Virus record (IMG/VR): IMGVR_UViG_3300031760_000343
Length of the DNA: 32,840 bases
Direction: 5' to 3' (one strand)
Source: a virus
In this document: one piece after another, positions 1 to 32,791 of the stretch
How the letters are laid out: every line of letters begins with the position of its first letter
Position numbering within the stretch: the first letter of the stretch is position 1
The notes under the pieces: generated by a model
The model's database searches: none
What the model was told of the DNA's origin: nothing
The model's input: only the letters and a program-made list of their open reading frames with translations
Made by a program: the position numbers and the translations under genes

Positions 1-127
1 GTTAACGAAACCCAGTCCAGGACGCAACAGGAAGAGATCCTCGCTGCCGGATTCCCACTGCATAAAGCTGTTGATTAGGCGGTGAGCATATGGATACACA
101 CACATATAGTACGCCGCCTATGGAGAA
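1..127. repeat. Terminal direct repeat, copy 1 (identical to 32714..32840); circular-assembly overlap
   Basis: Bases 1..127 recur exactly at 32714..32840. The repeat cuts through the 3' end of CDS 31874..32791 and the 5' end of CDS 90..2039; the second copy of that ATG is at 32803. Confidence 0.9.
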
Positions 128-2039: not shown

Positions 2040-2748
2040 TCTTTCACTCATCAAGCCGGGCCCGGATGATGCGGTCGATGTGGCTGATCTCAACGAAAAC
2101 TTTGACAAAATTGATAATTTTGCAGGGGGAGTGGGCGGAGATACATATACCAAATCCGAGATCGACGAAATGCTTACCGAAAAGGTCGATGCCGAGGAAG
2201 GGAAAGGGCTGAGCACCAATGACTATACCGACACAGAAAAATCAAGAGTGGCGTCAAGTACGGCAGGCGTTACTGCACTGGAACAAATGAACGGAAAAAA
2301 GAACTGGATAAATGTCAATGTTACTTCTCAGACGGTAAGCACGCTTGATTTCACTGTGAATGCAGACAATACAATCCTTGTCAACGGCAGCAAGCCCTCA
2401 TCATCTGTATCACTTACAATCAATGATGCAGTACAGCTCCCACAGGGGGATTATGTCCTTCTTGACGGTTCTGGAGTATCTTCATCAATCCTTAACGTTA
2501 CATTATTCAGAAATACAAGTACGTGGACAGGAACTACAGCAACGAACGGAAGATTTGAGTTTACAGCAAACGGTACAGATACATATTACTGTCGAATCTA
2601 TGTCAATACAGCTGCGGATAACGTGGTGTTTAAACCAATGATAATCCCGAAAGCCGCATATGATGCAGGATTTACAGATTATCAGCCATACGCACCCACC
2701 AACAGGGAGCTTTATGAGATGATATTAAGTTTACAGTCAGGCACGTAA
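2020..2748 (+). CDS. Tail fiber / receptor-binding protein
   Basis: 242-aa ORF overlapping the Tal-like gene by 20 nt. The N-terminus NLSLIKPGPDDAVDVADLNENFDKID and the motif GKGLSTNDYTDTEK are typical of Firmicutes phage tail fibers. It sits immediately before the lysis cassette. Confidence 0.65.
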   Translation: MATRTPNLSLIKPGPDDAVDVADLNENFDKIDNFAGGVGGDTYTKSEIDEMLTEKVDAEEGKGLSTNDYTDTEKSRVASSTAGVTALEQMNGKKNWINVNVTSQTVSTLDFTVNADNTILVNGSKPSSSVSLTINDAVQLPQGDYVLLDGSGVSSSILNVTLFRNTSTWTGTTATNGRFEFTANGTDTYYCRIYVNTAADNVVFKPMIIPKAAYDAGFTDYQPYAPTNRELYEMILSLQSGT

Positions 2749-2758
2749 GGAGGAGAAA

Positions 2759-3154
2759 ATGCAGTACATACTAATGCTTACTATAGTCCTCGGACTTGCC
2801 CTGTCTGACTTTATCACAGGTATCATCAAGGGATATATAACGGGTACGCTCAGCAGCTCCAAGATGCGCAAGGGCGGACTCAATAAGATCGGCGAGCTTA
2901 TCGTTATGGCAACAGCCTGCGGTCTGGAGATAGGCATCAAGGCACTCGGACACTACTACAGCGCCGCAGAGCTTGCAGGCGTTACGGGTACAGTCACCGC
3001 TATACTCGTCTTCGGCTATATAGTTATCATGGAGCTGATCTCAATACTCGAAAACTACGCGGAGATCAATCCGGATTCGGCAGGCTGGATCGCGTCGCTG
3101 CTGAAACGACTCAAAAATGTAAAGGAGGAAAAGGACGATGAAAAAAGGAATTGA
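2759..3154 (+). CDS. Holin (phage_holin_4 / TcdE-like)
   Basis: 131 aa with several hydrophobic helices. It has the LNKIGELIVMA and MELISILENY motifs and a charged C-terminal tail. The SD is AGGAGGAG and the gene lies directly upstream of the endolysin. Confidence 0.8.
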   Translation: MQYILMLTIVLGLALSDFITGIIKGYITGTLSSSKMRKGGLNKIGELIVMATACGLEIGIKALGHYYSAAELAGVTGTVTAILVFGYIVIMELISILENYAEINPDSAGWIASLLKRLKNVKEEKDDEKRN

Positions 3155-3842
3155 TGTATCAGAGTGGCAGGGTACGATCGACTGGGAGACTGTCAGGGCT
3201 TCGGGGGTAGAGTTTGCTATTCTCCGTGCAGGTTACGGCAGAGTGGCATCCCAGAAGGACAAGACCTTCGATGCAAATTATTTCGGCTGTAAAGCTGCGA
3301 ATATCCCTTGCGGAGCGTATTGGTACTCGTATGCTACAAGCGAGGACGAGGCACGTCAGGAGGCGGCAATTTGCCTCGATATACTCAAATACAATCAGCT
3401 CGAATACCCTGTCTATTACGATGTCGAGGAACAGCGCACACTCACTCTCGGAAAAGAAAAGGTGAGCGCTATCATAAAAGCTTTCTGCGACGTGCTCGAA
3501 AAAGCAGGATACTTTGTAGGTCTCTATATGTCTGCCTATCCTCTGGGGAATCTCGTGAGCGAGGAAGTGCGGAACAGATATGCCGTGTGGGTAGCTCATT
3601 ACGGCGTGACTAAGCCTGTTTATTCCGGGAAATACGGCATCTGGCAGAAATGCAGCACAGGGACAGTCCCCGGCATTGCAGGCGATGTTGACCTCAACGA
3701 AGCGTATGAGGATTACCCTGAGATCATAAAGGCAGCGGAACTCAACAACTGGAAAGCTGCGGAAGAAAAAAAGCACCGCCTGAGGGTGTACCTCGACGAT
3801 GCTCTCATAACCGACCACGAATTCAGCGGACTTATAGATTAA
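3138..3842 (+). CDS. Endolysin, GH25 muramidase
   Basis: The N-terminus MKKGIDVSEWQGTIDWETVRASGVEFAILRAGYG is the classic GH25 lysozyme signature. The gene overlaps the holin 3' end. Confidence 0.9.
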   Translation: MKKGIDVSEWQGTIDWETVRASGVEFAILRAGYGRVASQKDKTFDANYFGCKAANIPCGAYWYSYATSEDEARQEAAICLDILKYNQLEYPVYYDVEEQRTLTLGKEKVSAIIKAFCDVLEKAGYFVGLYMSAYPLGNLVSEEVRNRYAVWVAHYGVTKPVYSGKYGIWQKCSTGTVPGIAGDVDLNEAYEDYPEIIKAAELNNWKAAEEKKHRLRVYLDDALITDHEFSGLID

Positions 3843-4009: not shown

Positions 4010-4038
4010 ATTATATGATATTTTCGGCAGTTTGTCAA
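4010..4038 (-). promoter_or_regulatory. Consensus sigma-A type promoter, leftward
   Basis: The minus strand reads TTGACA (4038..4033), a 17-nt spacer, then TATAAT (4015..4010). The site is intergenic, with no ORF of 60 aa or more downstream. Confidence 0.6.
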
Positions 4039-4550: not shown

Positions 4551-5186
4551 TCAGTATCTCCGCTTAGACTCCACTACCTGCCCTACTACCGATACACGGT
4601 TCATTTCCTTATCTGCAAAGATACGGGGCGGATAGCAGGGATTCACGCTGTTAAGGGTTATCTTATGAGTATCTATATCAACATACTTGACCAGACCGTC
4701 TTCCTGGTCTACGGTAACGACTGCAAGGCATGGCGTTTCAAGGACGTTCTGAGCTCGGACGAGCACCAGATCACCCTCGAGGAGCGTCGGCTCCATGCTG
4801 TCTCCCTTGACTTTCAGCCAGAAATAATCGTAGCCGTCCTTAAGTATATCACTGTCAGTTAAGATATATTCAGATATATTCTCCTCTGCAAGACAGCTGT
4901 ACCCTGCCGCTACCCTGCCTATCAGCGGCACTCTCGAACAGTCTGCTTCGCTGTAGGGGATTTTTTTGATTTGTGGTTCTTGTGCCGGTGAATTGGTCCC
5001 GAGAAGGATGTCTGAAGAAATGTCAAGTGCTTTGCAAATACTTAAAAGTACAGCAGTACTAATATCTCTTTCTCCTCTTTCGTATGATGCATAGGTTCTT
5101 GCGTTCATTCCAAGCTTATCTGCAAACTCTTTTTGCGATAAGCCGCTTTTTTTTCGTTCGTTTTTTAGATTATCTGCAACAGTCAT
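4551..5186 (-). CDS. CI/LexA-type repressor (XRE HTH plus S24 peptidase)
   Basis: Start chosen at ATG 5186 with SD AGGAGG upstream. The N-terminus has the HTH segment LSQKEFADKLGMNARTYASYERGERDIS. The C-terminus has VPLIGRVAAG and GDSMEP, the S24 catalytic Ser motif. The longer track ORF (to 5363) runs through the promoter region. Confidence 0.85.
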   Translation of the reverse strand: MTVADNLKNERKKSGLSQKEFADKLGMNARTYASYERGERDISTAVLLSICKALDISSDILLGTNSPAQEPQIKKIPYSEADCSRVPLIGRVAAGYSCLAEENISEYILTDSDILKDGYDYFWLKVKGDSMEPTLLEGDLVLVRAQNVLETPCLAVVTVDQEDGLVKYVDIDTHKITLNSVNPCYPPRIFADKEMNRVSVVGQVVESKRRY

Positions 5187-5210
5187 TATTATGCACCTCC
5201 TATTGTGTAG

Positions 5211-5239
5211 ATTATAACACATAATGTGTAAATAGTCAA
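5211..5239 (-). promoter_or_regulatory. Repressor promoter (PRM-like)
   Basis: The minus strand reads TTGACT (5239..5234), a 17-nt spacer, then TATAAT (5216..5211), about 25 nt upstream of the repressor ATG. An operator dyad lies in the spacer. Confidence 0.65.
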
Positions 5240-5319
5240 GTAGAAAAAGAAACACATTGTGTGTGCAAGTTGCATAAAAACAGTGAACACTTTTTGTGTA
5301 GCTTTTTTCTCGTAAAGTA

Positions 5320-5347
5320 TTGACACTTACACAAAACGTGGTATAAT
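5320..5347 (+). promoter_or_regulatory. Early rightward promoter (PR-like)
   Basis: TTGACA (5320..5325), a 16-nt spacer, then the extended -10 TGgTATAAT (5339..5347). An operator 12-mer lies in the spacer and a second copy just downstream. Confidence 0.75.
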
Positions 5348-5389
5348 ATACACATGAACACAAAACGTGTTTGTGAAAGGAGTGATATC

Positions 5390-17662: not shown

Positions 17663-17835
17663 TATGGGACGAGTACTTGAAAGACAGAAAGTATGCGATC
17701 CGAAACGCATACAACGGCACGTACATACACAAGACGCTGTTCCGGGTGCGAGTGTTCCACGACCGCAAGGACGCACTTAAGTACATCCGCAAGTGCGGCA
17801 TGAATGAGAAAATCTATGAGGTGGTGGAGATATGA
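17659..17835 (+). CDS. Hypothetical small protein (58 aa)
   Basis: The frame is coupled to both neighbours by ATGA overlaps. It is preferred over the out-of-frame track ORF 17592..17780. Confidence 0.45.
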   Translation: MIWDEYLKDRKYAIRNAYNGTYIHKTLFRVRVFHDRKDALKYIRKCGMNEKIYEVVEI

Positions 17836-18260
17836 CAGAGAAAGAACTTGATCTCAGGCACTGGCTGAACCGTGCCTTTTACGCAGACAAAAAAGCAAAG
17901 GCGCTCGATATGCTCGTATCGCAGTGCAGGGAACGCGCTACAGGGCTTGTGAGATATTCAGAGGGTAATGATACCGGTAAGAGCGGCACGTCAAAAAACG
18001 GCACTGAGAGCGCTCTGATGAAGCTTGCGGAAATGGAAGAGAAGGCAGAATGTCAGAAAGCCGAAGCGGTCAAGGTATCAGCTGAGATACAGGATGCGAT
18101 ATCGATGCTGCACGATGATGATCTCGAAGCTGTGCTGATTCACAGGTATCTTAACTTCCTGACTATTGAGCAGACTGCTGAGATAATGAACTATCATCCT
18201 AACACTGTGAAAGCAAAAGTTAAGACTGCGGTACAGAAAATATGTACCGAAATGTCTTGA
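17832..18260 (+). CDS. Late-gene transcriptional activator (sigma-70 region 4 / RinA-ArpU-like)
   Basis: The C-terminus LEAVLIHRYLNFLTIEQTAEIMNYHPNTVKAKVKTAVQKI resembles a sigma region 4 HTH. It is the last gene before the packaging module. Confidence 0.6.
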   Translation: MTEKELDLRHWLNRAFYADKKAKALDMLVSQCRERATGLVRYSEGNDTGKSGTSKNGTESALMKLAEMEEKAECQKAEAVKVSAEIQDAISMLHDDDLEAVLIHRYLNFLTIEQTAEIMNYHPNTVKAKVKTAVQKICTEMS

Positions 18261-19532: not shown

Positions 19533-21249
19533 AAAGGAGCTGACAGCAATTGACATAGTGAAGAAAAGCCGAGCCTATAAATATGCTCTTTGGGCTGCCG
19601 AACCCGATAATCATTATGTCGGCCGTTATGTAAAGCTCCAGGCGGTGCAATGGCTCGAGATCGCAGACGGTAAGAGCGAGGATGCTTACGTTTGTGAGAA
19701 GCACTGGAAGAAAATAACGAAGCTGCTGAAGATCATCATGCATCCTGATCTTGGTCATTCCATGTATGAGGGACTTGAAGACTACGCAGTTTTATTCATA
19801 TATGCCCTTTTCTGTACGAAACGACGTACTGACCGTCTCAGATACTACGAGACAGGGCTTTTAGAGATCGCGAGAAAGAACTTCAAGACGTTCACCTCAG
19901 CGGTCATTTTTATTATCGGACTGCTGACGGAACCGCAGTTCAGCCGCTTTTTCGGCGTGGCTCCAGACCTGAAGCTTTCAAGCGAGCTGCATATCGCAGT
20001 AAAGAAGATCATTAAGTCAAGCCCCTGTCTGGCTGATGAGAAGATATTCAAGCTCATGCGTAAGGAAATACGCTGCAAGCTGACTGAATCGGAGTACACT
20101 CCTCTCGCTTATTCACAGGACAGAATGGACGGCAAGCTTGCAAATATGTTCCTTGCGGACGAGTGCGGAGCTATGGACAACTACCCTATAGAAGCTATGC
20201 GGTCCTCTCAGATCGTACTCAGGGAAAAGCTTGGTATCATCATATCAACTCAGTATCCTAACGATAACAATGCTATGATCGAGGAGATAGATAATGCGAA
20301 GAAGATCCTCGACAAGCTTCGCAGCGGTAAGGTGTTTGCACTGCTGTACGAGCCTGATGATGAATACAAGACGGGAGACAAATGGAAGACCGAGGATATT
20401 GCTTTATATCAGGCTAATCCTGTAGCCTATGCTCATGAGTATATCATGGATGATCTCCGGCAGAAGCGTCAGGCGGCTATAGACTACGAAAATAAGCGTG
20501 AGAACTTTCTCTGCAAACACATGAATATCCTCTACAAGAGCCTTGGTGTTGAGGGATTTGTTGAAATAACCAAGGTCAGACTGTGCTCAGTTCCTGAGGA
20601 TGCAGAGTTCTGGAGGGGCAGACGGGTATATATCGGACTTGACCTATCGCAGACCGATGATAATACGTCCGTAGCAATAGCCACTTATGACGCTGACGAA
20701 GATCTGATATACGTAAAAGTCTGGGGATTTATCCCGGCTGAAAAGCTTGAAGAGAAGTCTGAACGAGAAAAAGTGGACTATAAGAAGCTTATTGAGGACG
20801 GCGAGTGCTTTGCCTGCGGTGACGAGGTCATTGATTACGGCTTTGTTGAGGCTTTTATACAGTCACTGCCAGAGAGATATGGAGTTGAGATAGTTCAGCT
20901 GGGTTTTGACCGGTACAATGCTATATCCACAGTCCAGAAGCTCGAAAGCAGCGAGGATCCTATCGAGTGCGTTGAGATCAAACAGCACAGCAGTGTGCTG
21001 CACCGTCCTACAAAGCTCCTCAGGGAACGGATACTCAGTCAGAAATTCAGATACGATAAAAATCATATGCTTGAGATAAACTTCCAGAATGCCCGATGCA
21101 CAAGGGACACAAACCTGAATCAGTACGTCAACAAGAAGAAGTCAGCTGGCAAGGTGGATATGGTCGTATCGATCATTAATGCGCTGTTCCTGCTGCAAGT
21201 GGACGTACTGGACAACATCGAGCAGAGCTTTGGATGTCAGATAATTTGA
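19522..21249 (+). CDS. terL: Terminase large subunit
   Basis: 575 aa from ATG 19522, overlapping the terS stop codon. The ATPase and nuclease halves are typical of Terminase_1-type proteins that partner P27 terS and HNH. The track start 19459 lies inside terS. Confidence 0.8.
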   Translation: MMNKKELTAIDIVKKSRAYKYALWAAEPDNHYVGRYVKLQAVQWLEIADGKSEDAYVCEKHWKKITKLLKIIMHPDLGHSMYEGLEDYAVLFIYALFCTKRRTDRLRYYETGLLEIARKNFKTFTSAVIFIIGLLTEPQFSRFFGVAPDLKLSSELHIAVKKIIKSSPCLADEKIFKLMRKEIRCKLTESEYTPLAYSQDRMDGKLANMFLADECGAMDNYPIEAMRSSQIVLREKLGIIISTQYPNDNNAMIEEIDNAKKILDKLRSGKVFALLYEPDDEYKTGDKWKTEDIALYQANPVAYAHEYIMDDLRQKRQAAIDYENKRENFLCKHMNILYKSLGVEGFVEITKVRLCSVPEDAEFWRGRRVYIGLDLSQTDDNTSVAIATYDADEDLIYVKVWGFIPAEKLEEKSEREKVDYKKLIEDGECFACGDEVIDYGFVEAFIQSLPERYGVEIVQLGFDRYNAISTVQKLESSEDPIECVEIKQHSSVLHRPTKLLRERILSQKFRYDKNHMLEINFQNARCTRDTNLNQYVNKKKSAGKVDMVVSIINALFLLQVDVLDNIEQSFGCQII

Positions 21250-21255
21250 AAGGAA

Positions 21256-22887
21256 GTGGTCACAATAGGACTTTTCAGACGTAAAAAGAAACAGGAAATA
21301 AGAGCAGATACTGTTCAGAATGCAGAGACATCTATACTGACGTTCTTCGGTATCACCGGGGAGCTTACTCGTGAAGCTGCTCTCAGTATACCAACAGTAT
21401 CAGCCTGCATCAACAAGGTCGGAGAGACAATATCACGGCTTCCTGTGAAGCTTTACCGCAAGGACGAAGAAGAAGTCACGGAAATATATGATGATCCGCG
21501 TATAAAGCTGCTGAACGGCAGCACCGGCGATACACTGAGCACTGTTGATATGTGGAAAGCAGCTGTCGAGGACTACTATCTCGGCCGCGGAGCCTGGATA
21601 TACGTCAACAGTGACAGCCTGAGCGTCAGGAGCCTGCACTATGTGGACAGCCGCAGTGTCAGTATACTCTGCAACACGGATCCGATATTCAAGGCTTTCC
21701 GAGTTCAGATAAACGCACAGACGTATTATGACTTCCAGTTCGTCAAGCTGCTGCGCAAAACTCGTGACGGATATACAAATATTCCGCTGCAAGAGGAAGC
21801 ATCATCGATACTATCAGCTGCATGGAACGCTCTGAAGCTCGAAAACATGATGAACTCCAACGGCGGATGCAAACCGGGCTTCCTGAAATCGAAGAACAGG
21901 CTCTCGGATGCGGCAATAGCTGCTATCAAGGAAGGATATCAGAAGGTCTATGACAACGAGGAGAAGCGTGATAAGATCGTCGTACTGAATGACGGTGTAG
22001 ACTTCGAGGCTATTTCTTCAACGGCGGCAGAGCTTCAGATGAACGAGAACAAGAAGACCAACAGTATTGAAATATGCAAGCTGTTTGGCTTCCCTCATAC
22101 GGTCATTGACGGCGGCGCTTCCGAGGACGACAACAAGAAGTTTATTTCTGCGGTCATATCCCTCCTGAATCAGATAGAAACGGAGCTTGACAACGTTCTG
22201 CTGCTTGAATCAGAGAAGGAGCAGGGCTATTACTGGGCATTTGATACGAAAGAACTGACACGCGGCAGCATGAAGGAGCGCTACGATGCTTATGAAGTCG
22301 CTGTCCGCAATAATATCCTTCAGATAGACGAGATACGCCGTGAAGAGGACTATGAACCGCTCGGCTTCAACTTCGTCAAACTGGGACTCCAGGACGTTCT
22401 CCTCAATCCTGAGACTATGGACGTATTCACACCGAATACAGGACAGACAAAGAACCTGAAAACAGGCGAAGAGAGAGCAAGAGGAGACAGCTGGACTAAA
22501 GGAGCACACGGTTACTTTACCGGAAGCAAAGGATCAGGCGGCAGTTCTTCCAGCGGAGCAGGTGGAAAATCCGGGAAAAGTGTTGACAAATCTCAGAAAA
22601 GTGGTATAATAAAAGCAACACCAGAGCAACGCAAAAAGTTTATAAAAGACATTAAAGGTACAAAAGCAGCAGACGGAACTGTTATTCAGTCAATGATACC
22701 GCATACTGCTGATCGTATGATTGAAAGAGGAATATCTTCCGGTACTGTAAAAGATGTTTTAAGCAATCCAACAAGTACATATCCTGGAAATAAGCCTAAT
22801 CGCAAGTGTGTCCAGAAGGGCAATATCAGATTAGTTTATGAAACTTCCGGTCTAATGATCACGGCTATACTCTTGGAGGGTGATTAA
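21256..22887 (+). CDS. Portal protein (HK97 family) with Gly/Ser linker and C-terminal DUF4258/BrnT-like domain
   Basis: 543 aa. The portal core runs to about residue 415. The linker GSKGSGGSSSSGAGGKSGKS follows, then IPHTADRMIERGISSGTVKDVLSNP...IRLVYETSGLMITAIL. The GTG start is poorly spaced from its SD. Confidence 0.8.
   Translation: MVTIGLFRRKKKQEIRADTVQNAETSILTFFGITGELTREAALSIPTVSACINKVGETISRLPVKLYRKDEEEVTEIYDDPRIKLLNGSTGDTLSTVDMWKAAVEDYYLGRGAWIYVNSDSLSVRSLHYVDSRSVSILCNTDPIFKAFRVQINAQTYYDFQFVKLLRKTRDGYTNIPLQEEASSILSAAWNALKLENMMNSNGGCKPGFLKSKNRLSDAAIAAIKEGYQKVYDNEEKRDKIVVLNDGVDFEAISSTAAELQMNENKKTNSIEICKLFGFPHTVIDGGASEDDNKKFISAVISLLNQIETELDNVLLLESEKEQGYYWAFDTKELTRGSMKERYDAYEVAVRNNILQIDEIRREEDYEPLGFNFVKLGLQDVLLNPETMDVFTPNTGQTKNLKTGEERARGDSWTKGAHGYFTGSKGSGGSSSSGAGGKSGKSVDKSQKSGIIKATPEQRKKFIKDIKGTKAADGTVIQSMIPHTADRMIERGISSGTVKDVLSNPTSTYPGNKPNRKCVQKGNIRLVYETSGLMITAILLEGD
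22583..22610 (+). promoter_or_regulatory. Consensus promoter embedded in the portal linker-coding region
   Basis: TTGACA (22583..22588), a 16-nt spacer, then the extended -10 TGgTATAAT (22602..22610). Confidence 0.55.
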
Positions 22888-23124
22888 ATGAAAACGTTGA
22901 ATTCAAAACAGCTTGAATTTCTGAAAAATGAATTCGGGATAACTGAAATAGATTATTCCGATAAGAAAGCAGTTGAAGAGATTCGTTTGAAGTGTTTTGA
23001 CATTGAAACAGATGAAAGCTATGAAAACTTTATGGCTGGCGATGATACTTCATCATCTATCGGCAAAAGAGGCGATATGGCTGTATCTATCATCGATGAT
23101 TTGTATAGCATTATTCACGCATAA
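22888..23124 (+). CDS. Small acidic protein, candidate immunity partner of the portal C-terminal domain
   Basis: 78 aa. SD GGAGGG with 7-nt spacing. The gene starts immediately after the portal stop codon. It is A/T-rich and is followed by a terminator. Confidence 0.6.
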   Translation: MKTLNSKQLEFLKNEFGITEIDYSDKKAVEEIRLKCFDIETDESYENFMAGDDTSSSIGKRGDMAVSIIDDLYSIIHA

Positions 23125-23134
23125 ATAACAAATT

Positions 23135-23164
23135 AACCGTTCACATTGTGAGCGGTTTTCTTAT
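23135..23164 (+). terminator. Intrinsic terminator inside the head module
   Basis: 10-bp stem aaccgttcac/gtgagcggtt (one G-U pair) with a 3-nt loop, running into TTTTCTT. Confidence 0.7.
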
Positions 23165-23188
23165 GCCCATTTGGAGGAGGTGAGAAGA

Positions 23189-23431
23189 ATGGACGAGAAG
23201 GCTTTACAGATAGTCAGAGACTACATCGAAGAGCACCTTGACAAGTCAGACCAGAAGCCTGAGTTTGAAGTATACACCGTCTGGAAGTGTAAGGCGTTGC
23301 AGAACTGGAAGTATTTGCTGTCAAGTTCGCTGCCTGATGGTATGTACTACGAGCTGACATACAACGGCGACAAGAAGGAATGGTATCTCGACGCTTACAA
23401 GAAGTTCGAGAATGTTGTCATAACTGAATAA
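23189..23431 (+). CDS. Hypothetical conserved phage protein (80 aa)
   Basis: ATG 23189 lies after GGAGGAGGTGAG. I recall the pattern YTVWKCKALQNWKYLL...YYELTYNGDKKEWYLDAYKK from small head-module proteins of Firmicutes phages. Confidence 0.65.
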   Translation: MDEKALQIVRDYIEEHLDKSDQKPEFEVYTVWKCKALQNWKYLLSSSLPDGMYYELTYNGDKKEWYLDAYKKFENVVITE

Positions 23432-23440
23432 CGCTTACAA

Positions 23441-23483
23441 GCATTTGCTAAGGACATAAACGTCCCTTGCAGGTGCATTTTTT
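23441..23483 (+). terminator. Candidate intrinsic terminator
   Basis: The outer stem gcatttgc/gcaggtgc has two G-U pairs and encloses an inner hairpin. ATTTTTTA follows. Confidence 0.45.
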
Positions 23484-23512
23484 ATACCCAAACCACGAAA
23501 GGAAGTGATAAA

Positions 23513-24088
23513 ATGCGTATAGAACTAAGAGCTGACGGCCTGCATATAAGCGGCTACGTCAATGTCACCGGCAAGCTGAGCAGGCCTGTGATAACTCCAA
23601 GGGGCAAAGTCCTTGAAACTATCGAGGAGAGGGCTTTTGCGGAGGCTATCAAGAAGAACGGTGATATAACCGTTACCCTCGATCACGATCAGGGACACGC
23701 CTATGCAAGTACCCGTGACGGCACTCTGACGCTGAAAGAGGACGCTATCGGACTCCACGCCGACGTACTCATCACCGATGAAACAGTCATTGAAATGGCA
23801 CGAAAAGGCAAGCTCAGAGGCTGGAGCTTCGGAATGTACAACGTACAGGACGAAATGGAGAAAAGGGGAGAGGATGAGCTCCCGATAAGGCACGTTAAAA
23901 GCCTTATGCTCGACCACATATCTCTTATCAAGGACAAGATCCCTTGTTATGCTGCTACTTCGGTGGAGTGCCGTGCCGGCGAAGCTGTCGACCTGGAACA
24001 GCGCGGTATGGATGTACCGCCTGAGTATATCACATACGAAAATAAACCCGATTACACTGATTACGAAAGAAGGATCAAAGAATTATGA
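23513..24088 (+). CDS. Prohead protease, HK97 family
   Basis: 191 aa between the portal and the capsid gene. The N-terminus MRIELRADGLHISGYVNVTGKLS is typical of the S78/U35 family. Confidence 0.8.
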   Translation: MRIELRADGLHISGYVNVTGKLSRPVITPRGKVLETIEERAFAEAIKKNGDITVTLDHDQGHAYASTRDGTLTLKEDAIGLHADVLITDETVIEMARKGKLRGWSFGMYNVQDEMEKRGEDELPIRHVKSLMLDHISLIKDKIPCYAATSVECRAGEAVDLEQRGMDVPPEYITYENKPDYTDYERRIKEL

Positions 24089-25242
24089 AAAAGCTTATTG
24101 AACTCAGAAACAAAAAGAAAGCAGAGCTTCAGTCCATGCTTGACACTGTAAAGGCTGAGGAGCGTGCGTTCAACGAGGAGGAGACTGCTGCATTTGATGC
24201 ACTCGAGGCAGAGATAAAGTCTCTCGATGCAACTATCGAGAAGGAAGAGAGAGCTAAAGGTATATCTGAGCTCCACGTCCCTCAGGCAGCACAGCAGACA
24301 GAGAAGCTCACACAGGAGCAGATCGAGGAGAGAGCTTTCACCGACTTCCTTAACGGTAAGATCACCGAGATGAGAGCAGGCGAGCAGAACGTTGACTGGA
24401 CTAACAACAACGGTGCAGTTATCCCGACTACTATTGCTAAGCGTATCATCGACGCTGTCGTTGATATCTGTCCTATCCTTGCAGGAGCTGACGTATACCA
24501 CGAAAAAGGCGTTCTTAAGATCCCGAAGTGGACAAAGGCAAACTCTACACATGATGTGACTGTAGGATATGCAACAGAGTTCACTCCTCTCACAGCAGAC
24601 AGCGGTAAATTCGCTTCTGTAGATCTTGGCGGTTATCTTGCAGGCGCTCTCGTACTTGTTGGCAAGAGCGTTATCAACAGCGCAGCAGTCAACGTTACAG
24701 AGTTCGTTATCCGCAAGATCGCTGAAAAGGCTGCACAGTTCCTCGAGGGAGAGCTCCTTAAGGGTAGCGGTTCAAGTGCTGCACAGGGCGCAGTTAAGAC
24801 AACAAATGTTGTTACTACAGGTACAGCACTTACCATTGGTCTTGATGATCTTATCGCACTCCAGTCGGCTGTTAAGCAGGCACACCAGAAGAAAGCTTGC
24901 TGGACTATGACTCCTGCAACATTCACAGTTATCAAGCAGCTTAAGGACGGAGACAACAGACCTCTGATTCAGCCTGATGTATCATCTGAGTTCCCTTACC
25001 GACTCCTCGGAAAGCCTGTATACCTCTCTGACAATATGGACGAGATTGGCGGCAACAAGCTTGCGGTGCTCTACGGTGACTACAGCGGTCTCTCTGTAAA
25101 CTTCCGCGAGGATATCGGTATTGAGGTGCTCAGAGAAGCATATCACACTCAGCACGCAATCGGCATCGACTGTTGGTTTGAGTTCGACAGCAAGGTCACA
25201 GACGAGCAGAAGCTTGCTGTTCTTAAGGTCAAGGCATCATAA
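24085..25242 (+). CDS. Major capsid protein, HK97 fold
   Basis: 385 aa with an N-terminal coiled-coil delta domain followed by a capsid core. The gene is coupled to the protease gene. Confidence 0.85.
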   Translation: MKKLIELRNKKKAELQSMLDTVKAEERAFNEEETAAFDALEAEIKSLDATIEKEERAKGISELHVPQAAQQTEKLTQEQIEERAFTDFLNGKITEMRAGEQNVDWTNNNGAVIPTTIAKRIIDAVVDICPILAGADVYHEKGVLKIPKWTKANSTHDVTVGYATEFTPLTADSGKFASVDLGGYLAGALVLVGKSVINSAAVNVTEFVIRKIAEKAAQFLEGELLKGSGSSAAQGAVKTTNVVTTGTALTIGLDDLIALQSAVKQAHQKKACWTMTPATFTVIKQLKDGDNRPLIQPDVSSEFPYRLLGKPVYLSDNMDEIGGNKLAVLYGDYSGLSVNFREDIGIEVLREAYHTQHAIGIDCWFEFDSKVTDEQKLAVLKVKAS

Positions 25243-27731: not shown

Positions 27732-28003
27732 TGCCTTACTATCCTGAGGAAGGAAGTAAGGCACATTATCAGAATAACAGCTACTACAGAAAGGTCGTAT
27801 CCGACTATACAGGACTTACTTTTGTTGAAATAGACGGCATCGGTATCCTTGACTACTTCGGATATATCCACGATGCAGTGGTATGGAACTGTCAGAAAAG
27901 CGAATCAGGACGTGAATACCTTGAAAATGCATATTGCTACAGCCAGACTGAGCCTGACAGAGAAGCGCTGAGAAACAAGTTCGGAGGTAAAAATGGCAAA
28001 TAA
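27731..28003 (+). CDS. gpT-like segment of the tail assembly chaperone (probably made as a G-T fusion, 27462..28003)
   Basis: 90-aa ORF in the -1 frame relative to 27462..27731. It overlaps the tape measure start. Confidence 0.6.
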   Translation: MPYYPEEGSKAHYQNNSYYRKVVSDYTGLTFVEIDGIGILDYFGYIHDAVVWNCQKSESGREYLENAYCYSQTEPDREALRNKFGGKNGK

Positions 28004-31000
28004 GATAATAAAAGGCCTGACCATACAGATCGGAGCTGATACCGTCGGACTGGACAGCGCATTAAAGGGCATGGAAACTGCCACGAAAAGAGCGCAGTCC
28101 GAGCTGAAAGAAGTAGATAAGACTATCAGAGCAAGCGGTGATTCTGCTGTCCTCTGGGAGCAGAAGCAGAAGCTTATAAACACTGCCCTTGAAGAAAGCA
28201 AAAAAAAGCTTGGTACGCTGCTCGAAGCACAGTCACAAGTTAAGCAGCAGCTTGCAGATAAGACAATCAATGAAGAACAGTACAGAGTCTTTCAGCGTGA
28301 AATTGAATACACAAGAGCTGAAGTAAAAAAGTATGAGAATCAGTTATCCTCTGCGAATGATAAGCTCTGGGAACTTGGGCATGCATCCGATTCCGCAGCT
28401 GATGACGTAGATGAGCTCGGCAGAGAGACCGAGGAGGCAGGTGTACAGGCAGAACGTGCATCAAATGGCGGTTTTACTGTCATGAAAGGCGTGCTTGCCA
28501 ACCTTGTGACCGACGGCATACGTTTTGCCGCCCGTGAGTTTAAGGAACTGACTACGGACGTGATCGGGACAGGCGCCGCATTCGATGCCGCTATAGGTCA
28601 GGTCGCTGCTATCTCTCAGGCATCTGCTGAAGAAGTAGACCAGCTGAGAGAGAAAGCTATAGAAATGGGCTCGGCTACAAAGTTCACAGCAGAACAGTCC
28701 GCGGAAGCTTTCAACTACATGGCAATGGCAGGCTGGAAGACTGAGGATATGCTCAGCGGTATAGACGGTATCCTCGGACTTGCGGCAGCTTCGGGAGAGG
28801 ATCTCGGTATTACATCGGATATCGTTACCGATGCCCTTACTGCCTTCGGACTTAAAGCCGGGGACGCAGGACACTTCGCCGATGTGCTTGCGGCAGCGTC
28901 GTCAAACGCAAATACTAATGTCAGCATGATGGGCGAGACGTTTAAGTATGCAGCACCTATAGCAGGTGCTTTAGGCTACACTGCCGAAGATACTGCTCTT
29001 GCTATCGGACTTATGGCAAACAGCGGAATCAAGGCATCGCAGGCAGGTACAGCGCTCAGAACTATCATGAGCAACCTGACAAACGATTTTACTATATCAG
29101 GTGAAAAGATAGGCGACGTCACTATCAAGACGCAGAACGCTGACGGAACGATGAGAAGCTTTGCTGATATCATTGCTGATACAAGGGATGCATTTGAAGG
29201 ACTTACAGAGTCCGAAAAAGCTAATGAGGCTGAGACTCTTGTCGGCAAGAATGCAATGTCAGGCTTCCTGGCTCTTGTTAATGCAGCTCCTGCCGATGTG
29301 GAAAAGCTCTCCGGTGCTATAAAGAACTGCGACGGAGCAGCTCAGAACATGGCTGAAACAATGCAGGATAATCTTGCAGGTGATATTACAAAATTCCAAT
29401 CTGCTGTGGACGGCGCAAAGATACAGCTATCCAAAGGCTTGCAGCCTGTGTTGCGTGATGTAGTCCAGTATGCGACAGAGCAGGTCCCGAAGGTCGGGAG
29501 AGCTCTTGAACCGGTACTGAAAAAGGGTGCCGAAGCAGTTAAGTATGTGTTGAAAAATCTGCCTGACATCATTGAAAAAGGAAAAGATCTGTCTATAGTT
29601 GTTTCCGAAATAATAAAATACATTTCGTGGGGCGTTCCCGGTATAGCTGTTGCATTTGTAACAGCATCTAAAAGAATCGAGGAAGCACACCTTGAAAAAG
29701 TGTTTGAGGAAGCTGCTGCCGAGACCAACAGGCTGACTGACGAGCTCAACAATAACATATCGGTTATGGCTGATATGAAAGATAACGCTGACAAGCAGAT
29801 CCTTTCGGATAAACAGCTTATCGATCAGACCAAGATACTGTATGATGAGCTGAGAACACTTGTAGACACTAACGGTAAAGTCAAAAGCGGATATGAGGAC
29901 AGAGTTGAGTATATAGTCGGGGAGCTTTCTGAGGCTACAGGTATTGAGATAGAGTATATTGACGGTCAGATACAGAAATACGGTGAACTTAAGCAAAGTA
30001 TCGATGATGTTATTCAGAAAAAGAGAGCGGAATCAATGCTTAATGCCTATAACGATGTATATGATCAGGCTCTGTTGAGAACCGGTCAGGCAAACGCTGA
30101 ATTAGAGCAATTGAAGCATAATGCGGCTAAGAACAGAAGCGACATCGAACTGCTGAGGCAAAAGGCGGTGCAGAATGCCTATGCCGAGCATAAGAGTACT
30201 GCGGCGCTCGGTGAGTTTACATCGGCGAACTATGATGCATGGGCTCGATTTATGACTCAGGAGGATCTTCAGCGCCTGATCGCAGCTGAGCAGAACATAG
30301 CTGAAACTGAAAAAGCTATAGAAACCTTGAAGGAAGAGTTCAGGGACAATCAATCTATCGTTGAAAACTATGAATCTGCTGTCGAGCAGATGTGCAATAA
30401 CAACTACTATAACGTGCAGATGATGCTCTCGCATATCGGAGACCTGGAATATGCTGCTCTGCTCAATGCTAAAGGTAATACCGAAGATCTGAAAAAGAGC
30501 TTTATTGATGCTGTAAGAAGTGCAGAAAAAGAGTATGAAAACAATATTGAGCTCGGAGACAGAAATGCGAAAAAGACCTTTAAGTCTACTGTTGACGATA
30601 TTACACGGCAGGCAAAGGAAGGCGGCATCAGTGCAGGCGAGCTCCTCAGCACAGGAATAGTCAATGAGCTGTCTCAGATAGACGGTTTTGATACTCAGGC
30701 GCTTATGGACTTCTGCGAGGCGACAGGTATATCAATGGGTGAAGTCCTTGGTTCCATGACCAGAGACACAGCTGAACGGTACATTGCAGAGATACATGAC
30801 AGTATTGATATGATATCGAACTCCGGCGGCTTCGCAGGCAGATATATAGGCGGACAGCTTGAAGATGTGTTCAGGCACATCGGCTTATATGCAGAAGGCG
30901 GTACGCTCAGAGAAGGACAGGGAATAGTAGCGGAGGCAGGTCCCGAACTCATAAGCATCAATAACGGAACCGCCCGTATCACTCCGCTTACAGGCAGAGC

Positions 31001-31157
31001 TAAGAATACTCCTGTCGAGCTGAGCGGTGGCCATACAGTAATTAACAAGTATTACAACATCAAGGCGAACGTATCAAGCAGATATGATGTCTACAGGCTC
31101 GCCGAAGAACTGGCGAATGCAGAAAAAGTATATGAAGCAGGAATGGGGTTGATATAA
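27993..31157 (+). CDS. Tape measure protein (TP901-family core)
   Basis: 1054 aa. The sequence ATKFTAEQSAEAFNYMAMAGWKTEDMLSGIDGILGLAAASGEDLGITSDIVTDALTAFGL is the conserved tape measure core. Long coiled-coil regions are present. Confidence 0.9.
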   Translation: MANKIIKGLTIQIGADTVGLDSALKGMETATKRAQSELKEVDKTIRASGDSAVLWEQKQKLINTALEESKKKLGTLLEAQSQVKQQLADKTINEEQYRVFQREIEYTRAEVKKYENQLSSANDKLWELGHASDSAADDVDELGRETEEAGVQAERASNGGFTVMKGVLANLVTDGIRFAAREFKELTTDVIGTGAAFDAAIGQVAAISQASAEEVDQLREKAIEMGSATKFTAEQSAEAFNYMAMAGWKTEDMLSGIDGILGLAAASGEDLGITSDIVTDALTAFGLKAGDAGHFADVLAAASSNANTNVSMMGETFKYAAPIAGALGYTAEDTALAIGLMANSGIKASQAGTALRTIMSNLTNDFTISGEKIGDVTIKTQNADGTMRSFADIIADTRDAFEGLTESEKANEAETLVGKNAMSGFLALVNAAPADVEKLSGAIKNCDGAAQNMAETMQDNLAGDITKFQSAVDGAKIQLSKGLQPVLRDVVQYATEQVPKVGRALEPVLKKGAEAVKYVLKNLPDIIEKGKDLSIVVSEIIKYISWGVPGIAVAFVTASKRIEEAHLEKVFEEAAAETNRLTDELNNNISVMADMKDNADKQILSDKQLIDQTKILYDELRTLVDTNGKVKSGYEDRVEYIVGELSEATGIEIEYIDGQIQKYGELKQSIDDVIQKKRAESMLNAYNDVYDQALLRTGQANAELEQLKHNAAKNRSDIELLRQKAVQNAYAEHKSTAALGEFTSANYDAWARFMTQEDLQRLIAAEQNIAETEKAIETLKEEFRDNQSIVENYESAVEQMCNNNYYNVQMMLSHIGDLEYAALLNAKGNTEDLKKSFIDAVRSAEKEYENNIELGDRNAKKTFKSTVDDITRQAKEGGISAGELLSTGIVNELSQIDGFDTQALMDFCEATGISMGEVLGSMTRDTAERYIAEIHDSIDMISNSGGFAGRYIGGQLEDVFRHIGLYAEGGTLREGQGIVAEAGPELISINNGTARITPLTGRAKNTPVELSGGHTVINKYYNIKANVSSRYDVYRLAEELANAEKVYEAGMGLI

Positions 31158-31873
31158 TGAGCAGCTTCACCTTTAACGGGATCTCCTCCGATGATCTCGG
31201 AATAATGATAACTAAACCTATTGTACGGCCTACTTGGAGCAGGATAGTAAACGAGGAAACATCTGGTGCAATATCAAAGCTGATGCAGCAGCTGAAGACT
31301 TATGACAACTCCGAGTTCCCTGTATACGGTGTTATAACGGATGCGACTGAGGATAATATGAGACTGATATATCAGACTCTGAACGGCCGCGGAAGGATGA
31401 TAATATCTACAGCACCGCACGAGTATATGAATGTGTTCATCTCTCCTATAACTCCGCAGCCTGTTGCTTTGATGATGTCAGAAATTGTCCTCAGTATAGT
31501 TGCACAGCCCTTCGCCTACGCAGTCAATCCGACAGGGCAGGTGATAACACAGGACTTTGAGATAATCCGTAACGGCGGCACGATATTCGCGGCGCCTGAG
31601 ATAATGCTTAAGCCGAGGAGTGCCGGGGACATCAGCATCGATGTTAACGGAGCGTCGTTCGTGATAAAGGTACCATCCGAGCTGGTAGGCAAGACGATCA
31701 TAGTGGACTGCGAGGTACAGGTCGCATACTATCTCGGCGATAATAACGAGAAAATATCGATAACGCACATGACATACAACGATTTCCCACTGCTGAAAAC
31801 AGGGGAGAACTACATCAAGTACAGCGGCAGCGCTTCTGACGTTGTCTGCAACGTGAGAGAGAGGTGGTTATAA
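31157..31873 (+). CDS. Distal tail protein (Dit, Sipho_tail family)
   Basis: 238 aa. The N-terminus FTFNGISSDDLGIMI is typical. There is a TAATG overlap with the tape measure gene. Confidence 0.75.
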   Translation: MSSFTFNGISSDDLGIMITKPIVRPTWSRIVNEETSGAISKLMQQLKTYDNSEFPVYGVITDATEDNMRLIYQTLNGRGRMIISTAPHEYMNVFISPITPQPVALMMSEIVLSIVAQPFAYAVNPTGQVITQDFEIIRNGGTIFAAPEIMLKPRSAGDISIDVNGASFVIKVPSELVGKTIIVDCEVQVAYYLGDNNEKISITHMTYNDFPLLKTGENYIKYSGSASDVVCNVRERWL

Positions 31874-32791
31874 ATGGCTGCTACAGGCTCAGGAACACAG
31901 ATGGATCCGTATATCGTCGGTAACTGGGACGATTTTCTCACAGTCTGCAACATAAGCTCCACAACGTATATCGTATGGGACGATGCTGAGGATAAAGTTG
32001 TTGACTTTAACGAAATCAATCCACAAGGATTCACAGAAACCATAGCAATGAAAGGCATCATCGACTTCAACGGTTGGGAGTTGAGGAACTTTTACAGCAC
32101 AGCTCAAATAGCTTTTCAGCTCGGCAACGGCTATTCAGAAGCTGCACAAAGCCTGTCGAATCTGCGAATAACCAACGCAAGACATGATTCACAGAATACA
32201 AACCAGCATGAGTTTATCCGAATTTTTACAAATGACTATTCTGCACTTGACAACGTTACAATATCGCTGGAATTCAGCGCTGAAAACTACAGTTTCATTG
32301 TAACGCCCGGAAGAAAAGTAACGCTTAATCAATTCGGCTCGTACGTGTATGGTATAGCAAATACGTCATTTGTATATACACGTTCTCTGTCTAATTACGG
32401 TTCATTCGATATCAAGCATAGCAGACTACATATGGATGTGCAAGATAAGAGCACCGTGTCAAGCGATTCAGAGCATATGTTCAGAATGACCACACTCTAC
32501 AACAGCATCGTATCAGGTACATATCTGAGAGATGGCACAGGAGATGGCAAGCTCTTAATAGGCACAACGGCAAGCGCACTCAACGTCATAAGACTACAGA
32601 CGAACAAGGGCGTGAAATATAACGGTTCCGGGATATCTCTGAAAATCGACCGCGACTACACGGGAGACATAGTCCGCCCGAACATTGCGACATGGGACGA
32701 GCATGTTCTCGTCGTTAACGAAACCCAGTCCAGGACGCAACAGGAAGAGATCCTCGCTGCCGGATTCCCACTGCATAAAGCTGTTGATTAG
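31874..32791 (+). CDS. Beta-helix-like tail accessory protein between Dit and Tal
   Basis: 305 aa. The N-terminus GSGTQMDPYIVGNWDDF resembles the start of right-handed beta-helix/GLUG-type proteins. Short beta-strand periodicity follows. The gene is A/T-richer by eye. Its last 78 nt are duplicated at 1..78. Confidence 0.6.
   Translation: MAATGSGTQMDPYIVGNWDDFLTVCNISSTTYIVWDDAEDKVVDFNEINPQGFTETIAMKGIIDFNGWELRNFYSTAQIAFQLGNGYSEAAQSLSNLRITNARHDSQNTNQHEFIRIFTNDYSALDNVTISLEFSAENYSFIVTPGRKVTLNQFGSYVYGIANTSFVYTRSLSNYGSFDIKHSRLHMDVQDKSTVSSDSEHMFRMTTLYNSIVSGTYLRDGTGDGKLLIGTTASALNVIRLQTNKGVKYNGSGISLKIDRDYTGDIVRPNIATWDEHVLVVNETQSRTQQEEILAAGFPLHKAVD

Follow-up and report, generated by a model that had tools for sequence, protein, structure and literature searches.

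A swappable toxin-like tail and its predicted immunity partner at the 3' end of a phage portal gene

Polymorphic toxin loci of the contact-dependent inhibition (CDI) and Rhs types have a constant region that ends at a short, conserved motif (VENN in CdiA, PxxxxDPxGL in Rhs), followed by a variable C-terminal toxin (CT) and an immunity gene; orphan CT/immunity pairs further downstream retain part of the constant region, through which they can recombine. In phage T4, the internal proteins and Alt are targeted to the capsid, cut by the gp21 prohead protease and ejected with the DNA. Here we analysed 32,840 nucleotides (nt) of a virus (IMG/VR record IMGVR_UViG_3300031760_000343; "the window" denotes this whole stretch), in which the gene of an HK97-type portal protein runs on into a toxin-like C-terminal tail and is followed directly by a small acidic open reading frame (ORF). 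MuF polymorphic toxins with immunity genes have been published (PMC3482391, PMC5576092, the latter also citing Alt), two of them experimentally (Apk2, PMC10083569; Bxa, PMC11699363), and MuF carriers of Ntox49, a family with the signature H,[KR], are known (PMC3482391). Iyer et al. 2017 (PMC5512222) describe fusions of MuF and portal domains with BECR (PBECR) and 2H domains, as well as an inactive PBECR domain of Mu's MuF protein, and Iyer et al. 2022 (PMC9503650) describe Nudix domains fused to MuF, portal and capsid-processing peptidase; fusions of ART domains to MuF, portal or capsid-processing protease are also in print. A first-pass annotation of the window, made from its letters alone, knew of no described fusion to the portal itself; the BECR-portal and Nudix-portal fusions of these two papers are such cases. 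Our literature searches, in which an absence is no proof, found no explicit portal 3' polymorphic locus with swappable tail/immunity pairs or orphan arrays, no conserved promoter in linker codons, no demarcation by a protease motif and no mention of the partner protein family described below; next to the known BECR-portal fusions and MuF toxins, the swappable portal 3' locus, its embedded promoter and its junction motif appear to be new.

We consider it probable (roughly 0.65) that the portal 3' end is a polymorphic toxin locus, that is, a portal-borne toxin/immunity cassette that would be delivered by virions and whose immunity function would be kept in lysogens. Comparisons of DNA with the homologous loci that were fetched (L numbers) carry this reading. 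When positions 21000-24500 of the window were used in blastn searches, the same block of ~600 bp was found at 79-93% identity behind different upstream sequences, either behind other carriers or between terS and terL (L002, L004, L005, L010, L011 and L013), and its limits, ~22575 to 23173, correspond to the -35 hexamer of a promoter and the end of a terminator. Partial copies were present in L003 (22576-23118) and in L006 (22565-23050, up to its contig end). The portals of L010 and L013 were 81% identical in nucleotides to the window portal up to 22478, and past this point similarity was limited to the linker/promoter (22550-22611) and the terminator (23123-23172), between which they carry a different tail of ~75 aa and a different acidic ORF of 95 aa. 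Overall, five unrelated tails were found across loci at the same junction, TPNTGQxKNLxTGEERA, each with its own downstream ORF: the DUF4258-type tail of the window, Ntox50 (63.6 bits, full-length match) and three others, with at least three tails and one immunity family belonging to no named family. In L014 (1-3737), an HK97-type portal-Ntox50 gene with a 66-aa ORF is followed by two orphan tail modules, one of unknown type and one of DUF4258 type with its partner, and each of the two begins with a copy of a 72-nt repeat of the portal junction (three copies in tandem in the locus, 88-97% identical) and of a 58-nt repeat that includes the promoter. By analogy with CDI and Rhs, this architecture is the defining one of polymorphic toxin loci with orphan cassettes; although the window itself contains no orphan module, the following hallmarks of such loci were found: a constant carrier with varied tails, a partner that changes with the tail, and orphan cassettes with a constant-region stub (L014).

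Within the window, the junction reads ...TPNTGQTKNLKTGEERA and leads into a Gly/Ser linker and then into a module of ~86 aa (Table 1). The layout proposed by the first-pass annotation was borne out in each of its elements: the portal coding sequence (21256..22887) is present and matches PF04860 and TIGR01537, the acidic 78-aa ORF follows it at 22888..23124 with GGAGGG at 7 nt, and the G/S-rich stretch of the linker reads directly at ~22522..22581. The A/T-rich composition of the cassette, which had been judged by eye, was visible in a windowed GC plot (0.35-0.39 over 22600-23100 vs 0.47-0.50 on either flank), the promoter and terminator suggested as its bounds agreed with the edges of the blastn block, and the proposed comparison with homologous portals gave different tail/partner pairs at the same junction. 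The block thus has its own promoter, its own terminator and an atypical composition inside a late operon, as morons do. The pre-toxin linker of the window (22480-22521) reads SWTKGAHGYFTG, and the short motifs "ELRGWITKxGxHILIGE" and "HDPxTGRFTSG" recur in the pre-toxin linkers of different carriers (here, in L014 at 1171-1220, in L013 at 3130-3330 and in many homologues); they could be docking or processing signals.

The tail is best described, on profile and model evidence, as a divergent DUF4258/Ntox49-like BECR module and is predicted to be a metal-independent RNase. Scanned on their own, its last 101 residues scored 26.0 bits against PF14076 (DUF4258; gathering threshold in Pfam, 25 bits); a scan of the whole portal gave 22.6 bits. 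The alignment covers only profile positions 4-46 of 71 (the N-terminal two thirds), and homologues of the tail scored 17.7-29.8 bits (23.8, 20.8, 29.5, 29.8, 29.2, 26.4, 17.7 and 27.9). An exhaustive phmmer search of 1.84 billion representatives (E <= 1e-3) gave 83 homologous proteins, nearly all with the domain at the extreme C-terminus; other homologue searches, whether started from just the tail or from the domain alignment, returned few matches, chiefly short fragments. Three proteins with many short matched stretches in large repetitive sequences (P0013, P0043 and P0052) were set aside as spurious. His483 (22702-22704) was invariant and Arg491 (22726-22728) conserved in at least 90% of 27 diverse homologues, so that the two residues correspond to the Ntox49 signature, and the YPG of a YPGN motif and several glycines were nearly invariant in the domain alignment. 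An AlphaFold2 model built on the homologue alignment (predicted local distance difference test score, pLDDT, 93.5; predicted template-modelling (TM) score 0.81) consisted of helices followed by a four-stranded sheet, and its best Foldseek match in the PDB was the CdiA-CT tRNase of E. coli NC101 (probability 1.0, TM 0.57, E = 0.02), followed by M. tuberculosis RelE1 and colicin D. Among the viral models of BFVD, the matches were DUF4258 proteins (to E = 1e-3), a MuF "minor capsid protein", "Colicin D" and "Cytotoxic translational repressor". The toxin-type fold that had been proposed for the tail is thus supported by weak matches to CdiA-CT of NC101 and RelE1 and by viral DUF4258/MuF models. 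Of the earlier label "DUF4258/BrnT-like", the first half finds marginal support (26.0 bits) and the second none: no PF04365 (BrnT) match was found at E <= 1, and BrnT and DUF4258 are separate families (PMC11980606). DUF4258 overlaps Ntox49 and has been placed in the colicin-like BECR branch (bioRxiv 10.64898/2026.08.28.747851). The tail was not recognised as a member of any of the six PBECR families, DUF4258 being the sole Pfam match at E <= 1 in a Pfam copy whose PBECR models were not checked.

Pfam scans of the long homologues revealed the module fused to PF04860 portals, to the unrelated PF06381 portals and to S78 prohead proteases. A tblastn search of phage records recovered it in a single setting, the C-terminal end of the MuF "minor capsid protein" in Streptococcus pyogenes prophages, whose tail is 33% identical to that of the window. 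All these carriers are proteins located inside the procapsid. The carrier in the window is a PF04860/TIGR01537 portal, in which no N-terminal MuF domain (PF04233, PF06152, MuF3, MuF4) was found, and the earlier statement that this phage has no MuF gene agrees with tblastn of three MuF proteins against the window (the tail module was the sole match), with Pfam scans of the head-module ORFs and with the gene order. Two homologues (P0032 and P0072) are PF06381 portals with a Nudix domain between core and DUF4258-type tail, in effect small "polyvalent" portal proteins. Phages with toxin-tailed PF06381 portals also encode a separate short, toxin-free MuF (L009, 4849-5742; L016, 4032-4931), which argues that the portal fusion is not merely a stand-in for a missing MuF.

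The 78-aa ORF is predicted to be the cognate immunity protein of the module. Its ATG directly abuts the TAA of the portal gene, which suggests translational coupling, and its product is acidic (pI 4.4, 17 D+E vs 9 K+R). The immunity-like role it had been given at first sight was strengthened by its distribution: a homologous small acidic ORF (72-87 aa) lies directly 3' of the module in 13 loci of five carrier/position kinds, among them those behind HK97-type portals (window, L007, L012, L015), PF06381 portals (L009, L016), the S78 protease fusion (L008), free-standing module genes between terS and terL (L002, L010, L011, L013) and an orphan module (L014). The family shares the motif L-x3-Q-x2-F-L-x2-E ... 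R-x2-C-[FY]-D-I and follows the DUF4258-type tail only, other tails preceding other ORFs. A profile search gave 49 members, one of them identical to the window ORF and one named from a Ruminococcus metagenome-assembled genome (MAG), and none of the 49 has a Pfam domain. For the window ORF itself, no significant Pfam or NCBIfam match was obtained and the only weak matches were PHROG phrog_7261 (2e-4) and PADLOC KwaB (0.004); PADLOC accepted no match for the cassette. Nor did the ORF match Imm22, the usual partner family of Ntox49, and its model of three helices (pLDDT 94.5) had no fold match in the PDB. Across ten loci, the identities of toxin and partner co-varied (Mantel rho 0.75, P = 0.002). 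Two weak partner homologues without an upstream toxin lie in non-phage contexts (L017, L018), like orphan immunity genes. One S. pyogenes candidate, the ORF downstream of the MuF tail in prophage 315.4, was rejected as a partner homologue (BLASTP E = 0.8). We also observed two tandem partner-like ORFs after the portal tail of L016 (3241-3734). Of the toxin-free partner homologues already named, at 1738-2764 in L017 and 3501-3797 in L018, one L017 copy is joined to the end of a 276-aa protein. Such arrangements resemble orphan or poly-immunity loci.

A sigma-A/sigma-70-type promoter (TTGACA at 22583-22588, TGgTATAAT at 22602-22610) is embedded in the codons V-D-K...G-I-I of the linker region. 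Three perfect sites (TTGACA-N16-18-TATAAT) were observed in the 32.8-kb window vs 0.04 expected from shuffles. The TG of the extended -10 was kept in 17/17 promoter instances, with hexamers that were perfect in 12 and had one or two changes in five, while spacers and encoded peptides varied (five overlying peptides, two portal families). In the "VDKSxKSGII" group, TG and hexamers are constant and spacer and flanks change, and the protease fusion of L008 keeps the promoter although its domain is only 54% identical at the protein level. Four other lineages have a promoter of 10-12/12 with the extended -10 TG, 150-235 nt 5' of the catalytic His codon and beneath the peptides LTNDEESDIM, LTKDNPSAII, LQSEPKSDIM and LNSILESGII, and nearly all strict promoter matches in the fetched loci lay at such junctions. 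That the promoter is kept while the encoded peptide differs indicates that it is under selection, and because it also precedes unrelated tails, it belongs to the constant/variable junction and not to the DUF4258 module. A second perfect plus-strand site (5320-5347), beside the divergent CI/LexA-type repressor gene, has the same GTGGTATAAT as the cassette promoter and looks like a PR-like early lytic promoter, so that the phage uses this form at an apparently genuine early promoter; the third perfect site is on the minus strand (4010-4038).

Downstream of the cassette promoter, none of the start codons in the toxin frame follows a Shine-Dalgarno sequence, whereas that of the partner ORF does, and a lysogen would thus make the partner protein only. 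The 3' edge is formed by a terminator-like hairpin (-17.2 kcal/mol, z = -4.0), and the different cassette of L013 ends in a homologous hairpin that has one compensatory pair. On these elements the first-pass annotation was accurate: the promoter with its 16-nt spacing matches at 12/12 positions, the 10-bp-stem terminator was recovered by a terminator scan with a fold z of -4.0, and the lack of an internal start preceded by a Shine-Dalgarno sequence in the toxin-coding part is read in the sequence. Its assignment of the promoter to the toxin cassette holds insofar as the element is conserved at the DNA level, but must be corrected in that it belongs to the junction and precedes unrelated tails.

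The junction also contains a candidate release site. Nine copies of the motif E-x-R-A were counted in the plus-strand ORFs (~9,100 aa), all of them in the portal, the protease or the capsid protein; shuffling within proteins gave an expectation of 0.32 vs the 9 observed (0/5000 shuffles reached 9), and in all other proteins 0 were observed vs 2.3 expected. The positions are kept in L003, L008, L013 and L014 and include the likely boundary between the delta domain and the mature capsid protein, E[MQ]RA|GEQN. From this we infer that E-x-R-A is the recognition motif of the S78 prohead protease; as a candidate, it predicts the loss of the 17 N-terminal residues of the portal and a mature capsid protein starting at G99. 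The site at E405-A408 coincides with the break in homology to L013 at 22478, and the three modules of L014 diverge right after GEERA.

Taken together, we infer computationally the following functional steps. During lytic growth, the tail would be made as part of the portal, and the immunity protein, co-translated from the ATG that abuts the portal TAA, would keep the RNase silent. The C-terminus of the portal would lie inside the capsid, giving 12 tails per procapsid, and cleavage by the S78 prohead protease at E-E-R-A408 would free a linker-toxin fragment of ~135 aa in the head, which would leave with the DNA into the next cell. In a lysogen, with the late operon silent, the embedded promoter would transcribe an untranslatable remnant of the tail together with the immunity gene, and lysogens would in this way be protected from the tails of sibling virions, with non-immune cells being inhibited. 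More tentatively, and with rather more doubt than we attach to the locus itself, portals and prohead proteases may form, alongside MuF, a general class of carriers for virion-delivered polymorphic toxins, with a protease site as the boundary that frees 12 copies per capsid and a linker promoter that gives lysogens immunity for every module, orphans included; prophages would thereby gain a system of kin discrimination and competition with the virion as its delivery device.

Several points weigh against virion delivery of a toxin with its cognate immunity protein. Portals normally remain in the capsid, so that delivery hangs on the putative cleavage, and the junction E-x-R-A is absent from the portals of L007 and L015, which means that the release-site idea is not valid for all lineages. 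The match to DUF4258 is marginal, both in score within the full protein and in profile coverage (4-46 of 71 positions), the Foldseek comparisons with solved toxins reached an E-value of just 0.02 at a TM of about 0.57, and PDB sequences searched with a profile of the domain yielded nothing but noise. Some of the correlation between toxin and partner is expected from linkage alone, since adjacent genes co-diverge, and the MuF tail of S. pyogenes has a non-homologous partner.

In the strongest competing explanation, which we nevertheless regard as unlikely, the infecting phage itself would benefit from the tail, injected as an RNase for host takeover or against host defences, in line with the "polyvalent protein" model. 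On entry it might cut mRNA or tRNA of the host, or RNAs of its defences; the partner would only silence the tail in the producer cell, and the polymorphism would reflect an arms race with host defences instead of competition between bacteria. This is what Iyer et al. 2017 (PMC5512222) propose for PBECR-portal and PBECR-MuF fusions, and it would fit the head-internal location of every carrier and the combination of the module in some relatives with Nudix, a typical counter-defence domain. An inhibitor for the producer cell, however, needs no constitutive sigma-A promoter and no terminator of its own within a late operon, both of which point to expression in the lysogen, and the orphan tail/partner arrays and toxin-free partner homologues are typical of toxin-immunity competition. 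A virion-delivered polymorphic toxin and a takeover RNase are not mutually exclusive.

It is much less likely that the cassette is an ordinary type II toxin-antitoxin (TA) pair or abortive-infection moron that was fused in frame by chance and acts within the lysogen in addiction or defence, never being delivered by the virion. DUF4258 is catalogued among the TA toxins of the RelE/ParE superfamily (PMC11980606), and the promoter, terminator and low GC are moron-like. However, type II systems have an independently translated toxin and antitoxin behind a shared upstream promoter, whereas this toxin is translated only within the portal and, with no start preceded by a Shine-Dalgarno sequence past the promoter, a lysogen would make the antitoxin alone. 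A chance fusion is also at odds with the fact that it arose repeatedly and independently, in portals of two unrelated families, in proteases and in MuF, with the unrelated tails, Ntox50 included, at the same in-frame junction, and with the invariant His and the lack of a PADLOC match. Finally, the tail could extend the portal crown as a structural element or one that binds nucleic acid, without catalysis, and the next ORF could encode an unrelated small head or assembly protein. This reading has precedents in the inactive PBECR of Mu gp30 and in long portal C-terminal extensions of other phages such as the P22 barrel, but is the least probable of all given that His483 is invariant and Arg491 nearly so, that in-frame fusion to head proteins recurs, that a closely related portal (81% nt identity in the core) swaps in a non-homologous tail, which a structural element would not tolerate, and that free-standing copies of the module, too, have the partner behind them.

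The gene order around the cassette is HNH-TerS-TerL-portal-[cassette]-DUF6275-protease-MCP (MCP, major capsid protein). A CI/LexA-type repressor gene (4551-5363, minus strand) and relatives from Ruminococcus MAGs indicate a temperate phage of Firmicutes (Ruminococcus); megablast of positions 21256-23500 against phage records gave zero matches, and no integrase was seen among the ORFs scanned in the window. Just 5' of HNH-TerS-TerL lies a gene for a sigma-like protein (DUF1492, Sigma70_r4_2; 17832-18260), probably a late-gene regulator, which suggests a different signal for the late genes. The DUF6275/phrog_918 ORF between terminator and protease is missing at that place in L004, L005 and L013, in which the protease comes straight after the terminator, and is therefore a separate insertion. 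Tail and lysis genes, among them a tail endopeptidase and a GH25 lysin, occupy the left end of the window (90-3842), and in the right-end region (27993-32791) an ORF of 1054 aa (27993-31157) probably encodes the tape-measure protein, to judge by size and position only, so that the window looks like a circularly permuted phage genome of ~32.8 kb.

Table 1 Features of the portal 3' cassette and its surroundings in the window.
Feature	Coordinates	Strand	Details
HK97-type portal coding sequence	21256..22887	+	543 aa
Constant carrier, HK97-type portal core	21256..22479	+	residues 1-408; PF04860 at residues 46-365; TIGR01537 portal_HK97, 151 bits
Portal E-x-R-A, first site	21295-21306	+	residues 14-17
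Portal E-x-R-A, junction motif E405-E-R-A408	22468..22479	+	residues 405-408; candidate prohead-protease cleavage site; marks start of variable tail
Variable Gly/Ser-rich linker	22480..22582	+	residues 409-442; direct reading; length and sequence vary among relatives
Mobile block (promoter, module, partner ORF, terminator)	22575..23173	+	DNA homology; low GC
Sigma-A/sigma-70-type promoter, TTGACA, 16 nt, TGgTATAAT	22583..22610	+	extended -10; 12/12 match
C-terminal DUF4258/Ntox49-like BECR-fold module (predicted)	22627..22887	+	portal residues 458-543 plus stop
Shine-Dalgarno sequence of partner, GGAGGG	22875..22880	+	7 nt 5' of ATG
Acidic partner ORF (predicted immunity protein)	22888..23124	+	78 aa; ORF map; three-helix model; no named family
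Intrinsic-terminator-like hairpin	23135..23166	+	stem-loop 23135..23157; 10-bp stem, 3-nt loop and T-rich tail; 3' cassette edge
DUF6275/phrog_918 ORF	23171..23431	+	86 aa; likely true start ATG 23189
S78 prohead protease	23513..24088	+	191 aa
Protease E-x-R-A, three sites	23522-23533, 23624-23635, 23966-23977	+	
Major capsid protein	24085..25242	+	385 aa; counterparts in relatives carry PF05065
Capsid protein delta domain E-x-R-A, four sites	24157-24168, 24244-24255, 24325-24336, 24367-24378	+	first 98 residues

If the proposed reading is correct, the range of carriers for phage-borne toxins would widen from the accessory MuF protein to the portal, an essential protein of 12 copies, and to the prohead protease. 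The protease motif at the point of demarcation would offer a concrete hypothesis for the release of capsid-tethered effectors, a question that is open for MuF toxins, and the promoter in the linker codons would explain how lysogens could be immune while the late operon is silent. The junction TPNTGQxKNLxTGEERA together with TTGACA-N16-TGnTATAAT could further serve as a marker to mine rumen and gut phage genomes for toxin/immunity pairs.

Compared with the MuF toxins, the locus has in common a head-internal carrier with a variable C-terminal toxin and one or more small adjacent immunity ORFs, an occurrence in temperate phages of Firmicutes and a proposed delivery with the DNA, and the families Ntox49/DUF4258 and Ntox50 are found on MuF as well. 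It differs in that the carrier is the portal, an essential structural protein of 12 copies, in a phage without MuF, and in its junction promoter, orphan arrays and candidate junction protease motif, which are not reported in the cited MuF work. With the PBECR and polyvalent fusions it shares a BECR-fold RNase domain (here a predicted one) at the portal C-terminus, which for those fusions has been read as packaged in the head and injected, and Nudix-portal and protease fusions are also seen here; unlike them, the window tail has no Pfam family beyond DUF4258 and is no recognisable PBECR member, and an immunity partner, tail replacement, orphan modules or a promoter are not described for those fusions in the accessible parts of the source.

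The proposed mechanism resembles that of the T4 internal proteins and Alt in its tether to a capsid-targeting part, its release by the maturation protease and its injection with the genome, although the targeting part would here be the portal, an immunity gene accompanies the polymorphic cargo, and the cleavage is a putative one. Like a moron of the Hendrix type, the block lies within a late operon, differs from it in composition and carries a promoter and a terminator of its own. Unlike one, it continues an essential structural gene in frame with its 5' part and has its promoter inside coding sequence, and translation of the moron transcript is expected for the second gene only. Finally, in contrast to CDI and Rhs systems, delivery would be by a phage virion and not by a secretion system, and the demarcation motif GEERA looks like a prohead-protease site and not like a motif for autoproteolysis or entry; in common with them, the orphan modules of L014 keep a junction stub, and the best fold match of the tail in the PDB is a CdiA-CT tRNase.

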